NCBI RefSeq assembly: GCF_003018255.1
Contig: NZ_CP027440.1
DNA: 64,000 nt
Source: Escherichia coli
GTDB lineage: Bacteria; Pseudomonadota; Gammaproteobacteria; Enterobacterales; Enterobacteriaceae
Reading direction: 5' to 3' (one strand)
The notes under the pieces were generated by a model, which had not been told where the DNA came from, ran no database searches, and saw only the letters and a list, made by a program, of their open reading frames with translations. How positions within the stretch are numbered: position 1 is the first letter of the stretch; the number at the start of each line of letters is the position of its first letter. This document shows positions 18,938-57,072 of this stretch, piece after piece. A program made the translations under genes and the position numbers.

Positions 18938-18979
18938 GAAAGTGTGATGGGTATCAAATAAACAGCAGAAGAGAAATTT

Positions 18980-44472: not shown

Positions 44473-45861
44473 TCAGTTTTTATGTTCGGCGGTTAATTGA
44501 TTAAATAAAGTGTCGAGTTTTGGATCGCCAATATAGTTATTAATCAGTATCAGCGGTTTATCCGTCACACGTTTCACGCGCCCTTCCAGACTGGCATGAG
44601 TAACAACGATATCCGCATCCGCAGGCACGTTTTCTATCGCGTAATGTTTTACTTCTATTGCCAGCCCCGCCTTTTCCAGGCGTTTACGGAAGGTGGTCGC
44701 GCCCATCGCGCTGGAGCCCATCCCCGCATCGCAAACAAAGGCGATACGCTTAACCCTGCTTAACGAGAATGCACCTTCTTGTTTCATCGCCTTAACCGCA
44801 TTGGCTGACTGAGCAAACTCATCTTCGCTCTCCGTTTCCACCGTTTTTTCCATCTTCAGTATTACGGAAGTGATAGCAAAGGACACCAGGGTACCTACCG
44901 TAACACCGGCAATTGTCGCCAGGAACGAGCCTTTCGGCGTCAGTGCCAGGTAAGCAAAGATAGACCCCGGACTTGGGCCAGCCACCAGACCACCGTCCAG
45001 TAAGTTAAACATCCAGGTGCCAGACATACCGCCCGCAATCATGGCAATAATGGTCAGCGGCTTCATCAGCACATACGGGAAATACAGTTCGTGGATCCCA
45101 CCGAGGAAGTGAATAATCATCGCCCCGGGCGCAGAACGTTTACTCATCCCTTTACCAAACAAAGTAAACGCCAGCAACAGTCCTAAGCCAGGCCCAGGGT
45201 TGGACGCCACCATAAAGAAGATGGATTTACCGTTAACTGAAGCCTGTTGCATCCCCAACGGGTAATAGACGCCCTGATCTATCGCGTTATTGAGGAAAAG
45301 CACTTTCGCCGGTTCATTGATGACTGACAGCAAAGGCAGATAACCCGCATGTACCAACGCCTCAATACACTCTTTGACGAAAGTATTGGCAATTAACACC
45401 GCCGGGCCGATAACTTCAAAACCCAGCAGACAAAGGAGCATCCCCGCAATACCTAATGAGAAGTTATTGATAACCATCTCAAAACCAGCAGGGATCCGCT
45501 TTTCCAGCGCCTTGTCGATATATTTAATCACCAGACCACCGAGCGGCCCCATAATCATTGAGCCAAGGAACATCGGGATCTCTGCGCCGACGATCACACC
45601 AATAGTACCTATTCCGCCCATGACCGCGCCGCGTTTACCGCCGACCAGATGACCACCGGTAGAACCAATCATCACGGGCAATAAATAGGTAATCATCGGG
45701 CCGACAATTTTGGCGAAATGTTCGTTAGGCAGCCAGCCGGTGGGAATAAATAACGCCGTTATAAAACCCCAGGCTATAAAAGCGCCGATATTGGGGATGA
45801 CCATTGCAGTCAAAAAGCCCCCAAAAGCCTGGACCTTTGCACGAGCAGACTTGTTTTCCAT
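44473..45861 (-). CDS. cmtA: Cryptic mannitol-family PTS enzyme IICB (462 aa)
   Basis: ORF 44473-45861; MtlA-like polytopic membrane domain with C-terminal IIB. Confidence 0.8.
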   Translation of the reverse strand: MENKSARAKVQAFGGFLTAMVIPNIGAFIAWGFITALFIPTGWLPNEHFAKIVGPMITYLLPVMIGSTGGHLVGGKRGAVMGGIGTIGVIVGAEIPMFLGSMIMGPLGGLVIKYIDKALEKRIPAGFEMVINNFSLGIAGMLLCLLGFEVIGPAVLIANTFVKECIEALVHAGYLPLLSVINEPAKVLFLNNAIDQGVYYPLGMQQASVNGKSIFFMVASNPGPGLGLLLAFTLFGKGMSKRSAPGAMIIHFLGGIHELYFPYVLMKPLTIIAMIAGGMSGTWMFNLLDGGLVAGPSPGSIFAYLALTPKGSFLATIAGVTVGTLVSFAITSVILKMEKTVETESEDEFAQSANAVKAMKQEGAFSLSRVKRIAFVCDAGMGSSAMGATTFRKRLEKAGLAIEVKHYAIENVPADADIVVTHASLEGRVKRVTDKPLILINNYIGDPKLDTLFNQLTAEHKN

Positions 45862-45888: not shown

Positions 45889-46332
45889 TTATCCGCGGCT
45901 GATTATGTCCGCTAATTGTTTTTCTGATGCTGCTGTTAATAATTGGTTGAGTATTTCTTCTTCACACAATAATTCACTTAACGCCTGAATAGCGCCAATG
46001 TGCGAATCGGCATCGGCAGCAGAAAGCCCGATGAGTAATTTTATCGGTTCGTCATTCCCCGGAAAATAAACGCCTTGTTTAAGTAATGTTAAAGACATCC
46101 CGGTTTTAAGCGCCCCACATTCCGGTCGAGCATGAGGCATTGCCACGCCTGGTGCGAGAATATAATAAGGGCCATTGTTAATGGTGGAATCTTTAATTGC
46201 CTGAATGTAATTCTCGCTGATATAGTTTTTATCCAGCAATGATGCCATCGAGAAATCGATAGCTTCCTGCCAATCTTTTGCTGAATGTATAACTGAGATT
46301 GATGATTCTGGAAAATAATCAAGAAGCCGCAT
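45889..46332 (-). CDS. cmtB: Cryptic mannitol-family PTS enzyme IIA (147 aa)
   Basis: ORF 45889-46332; PTS EIIA-2 fold; AAGGA SD upstream of the start. Confidence 0.8.
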   Translation of the reverse strand: MRLLDYFPESSISVIHSAKDWQEAIDFSMASLLDKNYISENYIQAIKDSTINNGPYYILAPGVAMPHARPECGALKTGMSLTLLKQGVYFPGNDEPIKLLIGLSAADADSHIGAIQALSELLCEEEILNQLLTAASEKQLADIISRG

Positions 46333-46708
46333 AAATAATCCTTATTTTATTTTTAGGGCACCGTCCGGCGGTAAAAATAAAATACTCGTGCGGTTTAATG
46401 AAAGCAATTGGGTACGCGAGAAGAAAAACCCCATGAACAAAAATAATAAAACTTTAAATAACAACAACATGAAATTGATATTTTTAAAGTCAACTTTGTA
46501 TTTGTTATGTTTATCACAAAATCAACATTTTGATTGTTGTTGTATTTGTGATACATATCGCCATTTATTTATTGAATGTCCGAAAGCATACTTTTCTAAT
46601 GCAATGTTTTTTCGCTATACCCCTTTATAGATTCTGAATTCTCACCTGTCGGCTATTTTCTCCTCACCTCATGTGACATATTCCCCACTTTACTCAAGGA
46701 AGATTCAT

Positions 46709-47617
46709 ATGAAAGCACCTGTTTCAATAACCTCATTTCGCCCACAAAAATCTATTGCTATCGTCATTGGCGTGCTTGCCGTGGTTGTGCTGCCATTTCT
46801 CTCGTATTACACCGTTAATGAAGGTGAACGCGGCATTTTGCTGCGCTACGGAAAAATCGTAAAAGTTGCCGAGCCGGGTCTGGGTTTTAAGATCCCTTTT
46901 ATGGAAAGCGTGGAGAAAATTTCCACGCGTAATCAGGCTGTGGTTTATCAGGGATTACAGGCCTACAGCCGCGACCAGCAACCGGCACAAATGACAGTAT
47001 CAGTCAGCTTCCACATTAAACCTTCAGAAGCAGGCGCGGTTTATACCACCTACAACACCATTGAAGCATTAAAAGATCGTCTGATTGTCCGTCAGTTGCC
47101 AACTCAACTGGAGAACGTTTTCGGCCAATATACCGCCATCAGCGCCGTACAGGATCGTACAAAACTGGTTCAGGATCTACAAAATGCAATGCGTAAAGCC
47201 GTTGTTGGCCCGGTGGTGATTGATGGTGTCCAGATTGAAAATATTGATTTTTCTGACGCTTATGAAAAATCGATTGAAGATCGAATGAAAGCAGAAGTCG
47301 CCATTGCCACACGTAAGCAAAATCTGGAAACAGAGAAAATCCAGGCGCAAATAGCGGTAACTCAGGCCCAGGCAGAAGCAGACAGTAAACTGGCGGCAGC
47401 CAAAGCAGAAGCTGAGACTATTCGCGTAAGAGGCGCGGCAGAGGCTGAAACTATTCGTTTAAAAAGTGCGGCTGAAGCAGAAGCGATCCGCCTGCGCGGT
47501 GAAGCTCTGCGGGATAATCCCGGACTTGTTGCCCTCACCACTGCTGAGCGTTGGGACGGTAAGCTACCCGATACCATGATCCCCGGCAGTACAGTTCCGT
47601 TTATCTCTACTAAGTAA
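46709..47617 (+). CDS. SPFH/band-7 (stomatin/prohibitin/flotillin/HflKC-like) membrane protein, 302 aa, stand-alone
   Basis: ORF 46673-47617 trimmed to the ATG at 46709 with AAGGAAG 6 nt upstream; one N-terminal TM helix, SPFH core, C-terminal Ala/Glu-rich tail with tandem AEAETIR-like repeats; not at this position in K-12 as I recall. Confidence 0.8.
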   Translation: MKAPVSITSFRPQKSIAIVIGVLAVVVLPFLSYYTVNEGERGILLRYGKIVKVAEPGLGFKIPFMESVEKISTRNQAVVYQGLQAYSRDQQPAQMTVSVSFHIKPSEAGAVYTTYNTIEALKDRLIVRQLPTQLENVFGQYTAISAVQDRTKLVQDLQNAMRKAVVGPVVIDGVQIENIDFSDAYEKSIEDRMKAEVAIATRKQNLETEKIQAQIAVTQAQAEADSKLAAAKAEAETIRVRGAAEAETIRLKSAAEAEAIRLRGEALRDNPGLVALTTAERWDGKLPDTMIPGSTVPFISTK

Positions 47618-47645
47618 AAAAAGGGCCGCTTTCGCGGCCCTTCTC
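47616..47645. terminator. tktA rho-independent terminator, also abutting the SPFH gene stop
   Basis: Hairpin GGGCCGC-tttc-GCGGCCC flanked by A7 on the + side; on the - strand followed by TTTTTTT. Confidence 0.6.
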
Positions 47646-47662
47646 ACAAAGCATCTTACCGA

Positions 47663-56690: not shown

Positions 56691-57072
56691 ACCTCACCGC
56701 GGTGGATAGACATTCACGCCGCATCCGGCAAAAAAACGCCCGCAATAACATCATTCTTCCTCAACACGTTTTACCGCAAATTATCATCACGACTGAAACC
56801 GATTACACCAACCACACCAGCCAAATATTTGTAATATTTTCATATTATTATTCGGCTTTCACAGTTGTTACATTTCTTTTCAGTAAAGTCTTAATTGCAG
56901 ATAACAGCGTTTAATCTATGATGATATAACTCAATTATTTTCATGCACTTAAATCATAACTAAGATAAATGTTAGTGTAAGCGATTACACTGATGTGATT
57001 TGCTTCACATCTTTTTACGTCGTACTCACCTATCTTAATTCACAATAAAAAATAACCATATTGGAGGGCATC

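Follow-up and report, generated by a model that had tools for sequence, protein, structure and literature searches.

Predicted CRP sites as the source of the repeats in the AT-rich spacer between cmtB and an SPFH gene in Escherichia coli

An AT-rich intergenic spacer that carries inverted and direct repeats raises the question of whether the repeats are regulatory elements and, if so, which of the neighboring genes they serve. We address this question for the spacer between cmtB and an SPFH gene in a 64-kb stretch of Escherichia coli DNA (the window), which an initial annotation had singled out for its base composition, its repeats, and its TGTGA/TCACA half-sites. We consider it very probable that the repeats are two CRP sites in the upstream control region of cmtBA(-yggPFDC), from which CRP activates transcription toward cmtB; for the window allele itself, this activation is a prediction.

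The spacer and its repeats

The genes around the spacer run in the order yggP, cmtA, and cmtB (minus strand), then the SPFH gene (plus strand), and then tktA (minus strand), with the cmtB ATG at 46332 and the SPFH ATG at 46709. The following bounds were taken from the open reading frames and from the RefSeq annotation of a 99.9% identical genome.

45889-46332, minus strand: cmtB, PTS EIIA_2 of the cryptic mannitol system
46333-46708, unstranded: cmtB-SPFH intergenic spacer, 376 bp, 32% G+C
46709-47617, plus strand: SPFH/Band_7 "prohibitin family protein" gene, 302 aa

The description of this spacer as AT rich was borne out, over true bounds of 46333-46708. Its G+C content of 0.32, against 0.517 for the whole window, is the lowest of any stretch of that length; only 0.3% of 376-bp windows are equally AT rich, and every one of them overlaps the spacer. 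It consists of three parts, namely, a leader with a hairpin next to cmtB (46333-46410), a cmt control region (46411 to ~46600), and the SPFH promoter and leader (~46620 to 46708). The small open reading frames in the spacer (80 aa on the plus strand, 42 and 53 aa on the minus strand) were rejected as coding sequences, as none of them stays intact across alleles.

The repeats lie in the middle part, partly within two CRP sites that are described below.

46496-46515, plus strand: direct-repeat copy 1, TTGTATTTGTTATGTTTATC; left flank and left two-thirds of CRP site 1
46512-46520, plus strand: inverted-repeat left arm, TATCACAAA; read from the sequence, with corrected coordinates
46540-46559, plus strand: direct-repeat copy 2, TTGTATTTGTGATACATATC; 80% identical to copy 1 and 44 bp downstream; left flank and left two-thirds of CRP site 2
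46545-46553, plus strand: inverted-repeat right arm, TTTGTGATA; read from the sequence

The direct repeat is present as first described (GTATTTGTTA at 46498-46507 and GTATTTGTGA at 46542-46551), and when lengthened to 20 nt it keeps 80% identity between copies spaced 44 bp apart. The inverted repeat was placed correctly in its right arm only: the left arm is at 46512-46520 and not at 46521-46529, 9 nt away, so that the arms are 24 nt apart rather than about 16. At the right arm (46545-46553), TTTGTGAT is among the few blocks kept in all eight aligned alleles. The inverted repeat is unremarkable by itself, because 16% of dinucleotide-shuffled spacers contain a perfect one of 9 nt or longer, with 3 to 40 nt between its arms. 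The direct repeat, taken as 13 nt with one mismatch, is equaled in 3.9% of such shuffles.

Both repeats are consequences of one palindromic motif, that of CRP, being present twice, since a palindrome that occurs twice reads as a direct repeat and also as an inverted one. The left arm of the inverted repeat holds the right half (TCACA) of the first CRP site, and the right arm holds the left half (TGTGA) of the second. The initial annotation was right to see CRP-type half-sites here, although the two do not belong to a single operator.

Probable CRP sites upstream of cmtB

We scored the window with a symmetrized matrix built from 106 CRP sites from chromatin immunoprecipitation sequencing (ChIP-seq) of enterotoxigenic E. 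coli (ETEC) H10407 (PMC4287617), from which the cmtB site had been excluded. The four best-scoring positions, two of which lie in the spacer, are as follows.

56994: matrix rank 1 in the window; known galP site
18943: matrix rank 2 in the window; gcvT/ubiI spacer, both genes being in the SELEX list of Shimada et al.
46503-46518, unstranded: CRP site 1, cmtB proximal, TGTTATGTTTATCACA; 14.98 bits, rank 3 of 63,985 window positions
46547-46562, unstranded: CRP site 2, distal, TGTGATACATATCGCC; 12.45 bits, rank 4 of 63,985 window positions

The scores of the two spacer sites place them at the 73rd and 47th percentiles among the 106 training sites. Site 1 takes in the left inverted-repeat arm as well as some of the first direct-repeat copy and differs from TGTGA-N6-TCACA by a single mismatch, and site 2 has a weak right half (TCGCC). 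Their centers lie 178.5 nt (site 1) and 222.5 nt (site 2) upstream of the cmtB ATG, 44 bp from each other. Among 5,000 dinucleotide shuffles of the spacer, 40 contained a single site scoring 12.45 bits or more and not one contained two, which means that it is the motif content, and not the repeats as such, that exceeds chance. A search for TGTGA-N6-TCACA with at most two mismatches was not enriched over the whole window (32 matches against 27 expected), which leaves the matrix scores and the local clustering as the only informative results; 3 of the 32 matches fall inside the spacer, where ~0.16 would be expected. A third TGTGA (46672-46687), in the leader segment of the SPFH gene, scores only 5.4 bits (rank 90 in the window) and was set aside as a CRP site.

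That cmtB is a CRP target is already known for the K-12/ETEC allele. It was among the new CRP targets found by genomic SELEX, with a SELEX-chip peak at CGTGTTGTAGATCACA in the "cmtBA-yggPFDC / tktA" spacer (Shimada et al. 2011, PMC3105977, Table S3). In the same study, a K-12 cmtB-lacZ fusion containing the whole spacer (primers in Table S1) lost its activity in a crp mutant (PMC3105977), from which it follows that CRP acts there as an activator. In ETEC, CRP ChIP-seq gave a peak at TGTGATCTACAACACG that was attributed to cmtB; its fold-above-threshold score of 16 ranks fifth in the table, below yibI (45), mtlA (27), ppiA/tsgA (20), and fdoG (20) (Haycocks et al. 2015, PMC4287617, Table 1/S3). 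The sequence TGTGATCTACAACACG is that of the K-12-type allele and aligns column for column with site 2 of the window, and we take site 2 to be the ortholog of this published site on the strength of that alignment. Site 1 is absent from the CRP sites given in either paper (PMC3105977 and PMC4287617).

The window allele resembles the K-12/ETEC target in its locus, in the orthologous position of the site, in the distance of that site from the cmtB ATG, and in having an AT-rich spacer. It differs in that the SPFH gene and its promoter occupy the far side, in that site 2 reads TGTGATACATATCGCC with about 40 to 60% of the surrounding bases changed, and in the strength of site 1, which is higher in the window (TGTTATGTTTATCACA, 15.0 bits) than in K-12 (CGTGATGCATATTACA, 13.0 bits). 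With the tandem-CRP promoters of class III type (mtlA/yibI, deoP2, cdd, and nupG), the spacer shares an arrangement of at least two CRP dimers upstream of a sugar or nucleoside transport operon. CRP sites at CytR-type promoters are spaced 50 to 53 bp apart, unlike the 44 bp seen here, and between the two cmtB sites, where identity across alleles is 43 to 68%, we found no conserved candidate for a CytR-like partner sequence. The top CRP ChIP peak in ETEC (PMC4287617) is the mtlA/yibI control region, which has several CRP sites and is the functional paralogue of cmt.

Conservation of the two sites was assessed in 12 alleles representing four Escherichia species and, within E. coli, at least three classes (the window, F344, JJ1886, NMBU-W13E19, Nissle, ZLWT, the GTDB representative E. 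coli, K-12-like, O157:H7, E. whittamii, Escherichia sp. MOD1-EC7003, and E. albertii), with invariance of single columns judged from an alignment of eight alleles. Site 2 is present in all 12 (8.3 to 16.7 bits). Site 1 is found at 178.5 nt in 10 of the 12 (172.5 nt in E. albertii), with 8.4 to 16.0 bits; in E. albertii both centers have moved by 6 nt, to 216.5 and 172.5 nt, and the spacing is still 44 bp. In the Nissle/ZLWT class (about 470 genomes), site 1 has been lost (3.9 bits), and it is therefore dispensable at least there. The columns invariant in the eight-allele alignment are G172, A175, and A184-C185-A186 for site 1 and T215-G216-T217, A219-T220, and C227 for site 2. Across alleles the TGTGA/TCACA cores are kept and the N6 spacers and flanks vary (TGTTATGTTTATCACA, TGTTATATACATCACA, TGAGATGCATATCACA, TGTGATAATGAACACA, and CGTGATGCATATTACA), and this combination of conserved cores with turnover of the N6 is the pattern that would be expected of CRP sites.

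The same comparison indicates which gene the sites belong to. Their distance to the cmtB ATG is fixed while that to the SPFH ATG varies by allele (153.5 to 158.5), both sites persist in K-12-type alleles that have no SPFH gene, and no CRP-like site of at least 7 bits occurs within 500 bp upstream of SPFH homologues outside Escherichia. On these three grounds, we assign the CRP sites to the cmt operon.

The proposed mechanism is as follows. When glucose is absent and cAMP is high, one CRP dimer would occupy each of the two 16-bp palindromes, 44 bp apart, and the bound CRP would help RNA polymerase to start transcription toward cmtB. The window allele is expected to bind CRP at both sites, and site 1 is likewise predicted to be functional. 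The promoter class is more tentative, and two candidate geometries come into consideration. Taking the TGnTA element at 46455-46463 as the −10 element would place site 1 at about −62, a class I position, and site 2 at about −106; taking TATCAA (46480-46475), which is not conserved across alleles, as an alternative −10 element would place site 1 near −42. CRP-activated promoters have the site centered near −41.5, −61.5, −72.5, −82.5, or −92.5. In neither geometry would the two sites both be ideally placed, since a spacing of 44 bp amounts to four helical turns plus 2 bp. The cmt operon has been called cryptic, a point that we counted against an explanation by CRP activation.

History and variability of the spacer

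The cmtB-proximal leader (46333-46410) is 97% identical to that of K-12, and its most prominent feature is a hairpin.

46343-46384, minus strand: cmtB leader hairpin with perfect 13-nt arms (46343-46355 and 46372-46384) and a short GC stem, reaching the Shine-Dalgarno sequence
46622-46708, plus strand: SPFH-proximal segment (CCTTTATAG ... ATGTGACATATTCC ... CTTTACTCAAGGAAG), with a Shine-Dalgarno sequence at 46696-46702

A perfect inverted repeat of 13 nt appeared in none of 1,000 shuffles of the spacer. As RNA of the cmtB strand, the hairpin folds at −19.5 kcal/mol (z = −2.1), and it is near-invariant in E. coli alleles. The segment at the other end of the spacer is conserved in all SPFH-bearing alleles and in Pseudocitrobacter and is missing from K-12-type alleles, and it reads as the SPFH gene's own promoter and 5' UTR. 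In this SPFH leader, RNA structure did not exceed that of shuffled sequences (z = 0.15).

Among 5,426 complete E. coli genomes, 1,817 have the SPFH gene between cmtB and tktA; the others are K-12-like, with a megablast match to the window that stops at 46410. Within the SPFH-bearing genomes, the spacer is 94 to 100% identical to that of the window in about 1,350 and ~77% identical in 471 (Nissle/UM146 type). The K-12 cmtB-tktA spacer is 313 bp long and is colinear with the window spacer to ~46585-46600; beyond that point ~1 kb is missing, made up of the SPFH promoter-proximal segment and the open reading frame, and homology resumes at the SPFH stop codon and terminator. The exact junction is ambiguous by local alignment, which ends the homology at ~46585-46600. 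E. whittamii, Escherichia sp. MOD1-EC7003, and E. albertii share the order cmtB-SPFH-tktA, and Pseudocitrobacter has SPFH-tktA-loiP, with no cmt genes there. The G+C content of the SPFH gene is an ordinary 0.48. Given the synteny and leader shared with Pseudocitrobacter and the same arrangement in other Escherichia, the SPFH gene and its proximal promoter and leader are ancestral at this locus, and the K-12 arrangement is a deletion, not an uninserted state.

This history bears on the proposal that AT-rich DNA had arrived together with the SPFH gene, which does not hold: the spacer with both sites occurs in K-12-type alleles that lack the gene as well as in E. albertii, E. whittamii, and another Escherichia species, and the gene itself adjoins tktA-loiP in Pseudocitrobacter. 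What the initial annotation assumed is the reverse of this history: the spacer is colinear with K-12 to ~46585-46600, and the SPFH portion was deleted in K-12.

Between the leader and the SPFH-proximal segment, the control region (46411 to ~46600) is AT rich and hypervariable. The window and K-12 are identical at 39% of positions in alignment columns 79-170 and at 60% in columns 171-265, and the third-codon positions of cmtA and cmtB are 91 to 93% identical between the same two alleles. Between the cmtB ATG and site 2, insertions and deletions sum to zero in all E. coli alleles. A clean mosaic is seen in O157:H7, whose allele is of window type to 46463 and of K-12 type beyond; the alleles thus recombine at conserved islands. 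Besides the two CRP sites, only three such elements are conserved in this region.

46455-46464, unstranded: conserved island TAAATAACAA (cmtB strand, TTGTTATTTA), at least 95% conserved in eight alleles amid DNA saturated with changes
46486-46493, unstranded: conserved island AAAGTCAA (TTGACT on the cmtB strand, −35-like), with GTCAA invariant in eight alleles
46570-46591, unstranded: conserved block TATTGAATGTCCGAAAGCATAC beyond site 2, with invariant columns TATTG..G..CG.AA....AC, kept in the K-12-type allele

The first of these islands is also the recombination junction in the O157:H7 allele, and its extended −10-like sequence TTGTTATTTA (TGnTA...) is a candidate core-promoter element of cmtB. 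The invariant TTGTTA(T/A) of the cmtB strand is similar to the TGnTA portion of an extended −10 element, but its −7 position is A in every allele. The spacing of the second island to the other elements gives no canonical sigma-70 promoter, and simple scans for sigma-70 promoters and intrinsic terminators over 46200-46850 returned no match. Inspection of the islands by eye for sigma-E (GGAACTT-N16-TCTGA), Cra, Mlc/NagC, LacI-family, and CytR octamer consensus sequences (as leads only) gave no convincing or conserved match. We found no cmtB transcription start or other cmtB regulator in the literature.

Allele classes differ by 25 to 60% in the control region, against 7 to 10% at flanking third-codon positions, with no net indel over 220 bp. 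A bolder interpretation of this contrast, which we think improbable, is that the 190-bp region (46411 to ~46600) is an unusually fast-evolving or anciently polymorphic regulatory cassette under diversifying or balancing selection on the strength with which CRP switches on cmt and on the partners it uses, or else that the SPFH gene, a membrane-scaffold gene, is wired to carbon starvation via shared CRP sites. If the cassette interpretation were true, the proximal CRP site and its loss in the Nissle/B2 class would be functional variants.

What these analyses add to the known CRP target is minor and consists of the conserved proximal CRP site, the origin of the K-12 spacer by deletion, and the hypervariable, length-invariant mosaic. 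The repeats being the signature of an established CRP target, there is little consequence beyond correct annotation. The second, promoter-proximal predicted site is conserved across the genus and may explain why the cmtB spacer gives such a strong CRP ChIP peak. The length-invariant recombination mosaic also amounts to a natural allele series in which CRP site strength and context could be related to expression of a "cryptic" operon.

Alternative explanations

The assignment of both sites to cmt could be too narrow, and the same CRP dimers might also activate the SPFH gene, making the spacer a CRP-dependent divergent promoter. A CRP site between divergent genes frequently regulates both of them (PMC3105977), and site 2 lies 154.5 nt upstream of the SPFH ATG, where, with the conserved TATAGA at 46626-46631 taken as the −10 element, it would fall near −83, a class I position. 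A putative divergent promoter is plausible, but we doubt that it operates here: as set out above, it is the distance to cmtB and not that to the SPFH ATG that is held fixed, and the sites were kept after the SPFH gene was deleted. Moreover, the SPFH promoter and leader are conserved in Pseudocitrobacter with no CRP-like site upstream. Within the spacer, the CRP sites are on the cmt side.

A second alternative is that the spacer serves mainly as a nucleation site for H-NS, which would coat the region, silence cmt and perhaps the SPFH gene, and so explain the crypticity of the operon; this could coexist with CRP binding. H-NS prefers AT-rich DNA, and the spacer not only is the lowest-G+C stretch of the window but remains AT rich in every allele (G+C of 0.29 to 0.33). 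The local drop in G+C beside a gene missing from K-12 also recalls the acquired AT-rich islands that H-NS silences. Unlike such islands, however, the stretch of low G+C is intergenic and only ~380 bp long, the adjacent SPFH gene has a G+C content of 0.48 and is ancestral, and the spacer DNA, being in all Escherichia alleles examined, was not recently acquired. Nor is there an excess of H-NS motifs: the high-affinity motif TCGATAAATT has only one two-mismatch match in the spacer, and its count in the window (73 against 60.5 ± 6.9 by chance) agrees with chance. The orthologous spacer in ETEC is also among the five strongest CRP ChIP peaks, and that study concluded that sites covered by H-NS exclude CRP (PMC4287617). 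Such strong occupancy by CRP speaks against occlusion in the conditions used there. A search of the literature for published H-NS occupancy at cmtB found none. Taken together, these points make a primary role for H-NS unlikely.

It would be far less probable still that the inverted repeat is a unit by itself, be it a cruciform, an RNA hairpin, or the operator of a dedicated repressor such as the operon's own MtlR-like YggD. In the window allele, an imperfect hairpin at 46506-46557 does fold as DNA at −11 kcal/mol (z = −4.15 against shuffles), and Rfam gives a subthreshold match of hairpin type at the repeat. Across eight alleles, however, only 6 bp of the TCACA/TGTGA cores stay complementary, with 0 compensatory pairs and a consensus energy of −1.6 kcal/mol, and the Nissle class has CTACA in the left arm; the Rfam match, which reaches 24.5 bits where the threshold is 70, is to a miRNA family of eukaryotes, and inverted repeats of 9 nt arise, as noted, in 16% of shuffles. 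A structured hairpin or palindromic operator at 46507-46558 was accordingly rejected, as the complementarity of its arms is not kept across relatives. Finally, an origin of the repeats by chance in low-complexity AT-rich DNA, for which one might cite the unremarkable shuffle frequencies of each repeat alone, is excluded by the failure of all 5,000 shuffles to yield two CRP-grade sites, by the conservation of their positions in four species, and by the published CRP binding.

The explanation by two CRP sites of the cmt control region leaves one further structure at this locus to be described, beyond the SPFH gene.

47623-47640, unstranded: GC hairpin GGGCCGC-TTTC-GCGGCCC where the SPFH and tktA genes converge, read from the sequence

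At a permissive threshold, Rfam matched, besides the eukaryotic miRNA model, an unrelated sRNA over the terminator, and we rejected both matches as hairpin artefacts. The hairpin is followed by T7 on the tktA strand and so serves as the tktA terminator, and it is probably that of the SPFH gene as well.

Divergence across cmtB and its control region

Between E. coli alleles (loci L001, L003, L012 and L086), the cmt control region, which occupies 46411-46600 of the spacer between cmtB and the SPFH gene, differs at 25-61% of positions, with third-codon positions of cmtA and cmtB (44473-45861 and 45889-46332, respectively) lying far below this, at 7-10%. Despite this high divergence, there is no net indel across ~220 bp of the region. 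Identity breaks sharply at 46410/46411 in the comparison with K-12 and at about 46463 in that with O157:H7, whose allele is a mosaic of window-type and K-12-type sequence. These patterns suggest that the control region consists of old haplotypes that have been reshuffled by recombination at conserved islands. Among Escherichia alleles, CmtB retains only 86-97% amino acid identity, compared with 97-99% for CmtA and 99% for TktA. Since cmtB (G+C = 0.42) is so much more variable than its neighbors, the divergence peak takes in cmtB and the spacer together.

Two unusual sets of matches to the cmtB-SPFH query were also seen. In one E. coli genome (NZ_AP045783.1), only 50 nt matched, corresponding to window positions 46361-46410, and no feature is annotated at the matching position, which suggests that cmtB is rearranged or deleted in this genome. 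Two further matches are plasmid borne.

The cmtB leader

Two features lie immediately upstream of cmtB, as follows.

46343-46384, minus strand: inverted repeat with perfect 13-nt arms, TATTTTATTTTTA / TAAAAATAAAATA
46342-46470, minus strand: 42-aa ORF (MLLLFKVLLFLF...), whose stop precedes the cmtB ATG by 9 nt

The arms of the inverted repeat enclose a short GC stem, and the structure extends as far as the cmtB Shine-Dalgarno sequence. None of 1,000 shuffles reached its length of perfect pairing, and the RNA fold (−19.5 kcal/mol, z = −2.1) also pairs the start codon in the window allele. The repeat is near-invariant in E. coli and mostly retained in E. albertii. A terminator was ruled out because no U-run follows the hairpin on either strand. 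The hairpin could limit translation of the "cryptic" cmt operon.

The overlapping 42-aa ORF is probably noncoding. Of 8 alleles, 4 keep it whole. The E. whittamii, E. albertii, and GTDB E. coli representative alleles lack the start or have a broken frame, and in K-12 the frame stays open over 83 aa.

CRP-type sites and the adjoining conserved block

46570-46591: conserved block TATTGAATGTCCGAAAGCATAC, directly past the cmtB-distal CRP-type site (46547-46562)
56994-57009: TGTGATTTGCTTCACA, upstream of galP, a known CRP site
18943-18958: TGTGATGGGTATCAAA, in the AT-rich gcvT/ubiI spacer, located by CRP-matrix score

The conserved block is retained also in K-12-type alleles lacking the SPFH gene, and its K-12 version holds a small palindrome, GTCCG-CAAA-CGGAC. 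The galP and gcvT/ubiI sites have the two best CRP-matrix scores of the window. The latter adjoins an annotated 27-aa hypothetical ORF; gcvT and visC (ubiI) are both among the CRP targets in Shimada's SELEX list (PMC3105977).

The SPFH terminator-tktA interval

L002 and L003, about 2255-2430: ~175-bp insert between the SPFH terminator and tktA

The insert is found in many strains that have the SPFH gene, Nissle and F344 among them. It comprises REP/BIME-type palindromic units (GCCTGATGCGCTACGCTTATCAGGCCTAC...), after which the terminator hairpin occurs a second time. The insert is absent from the window strain (corresponding interval, 47641-47662).
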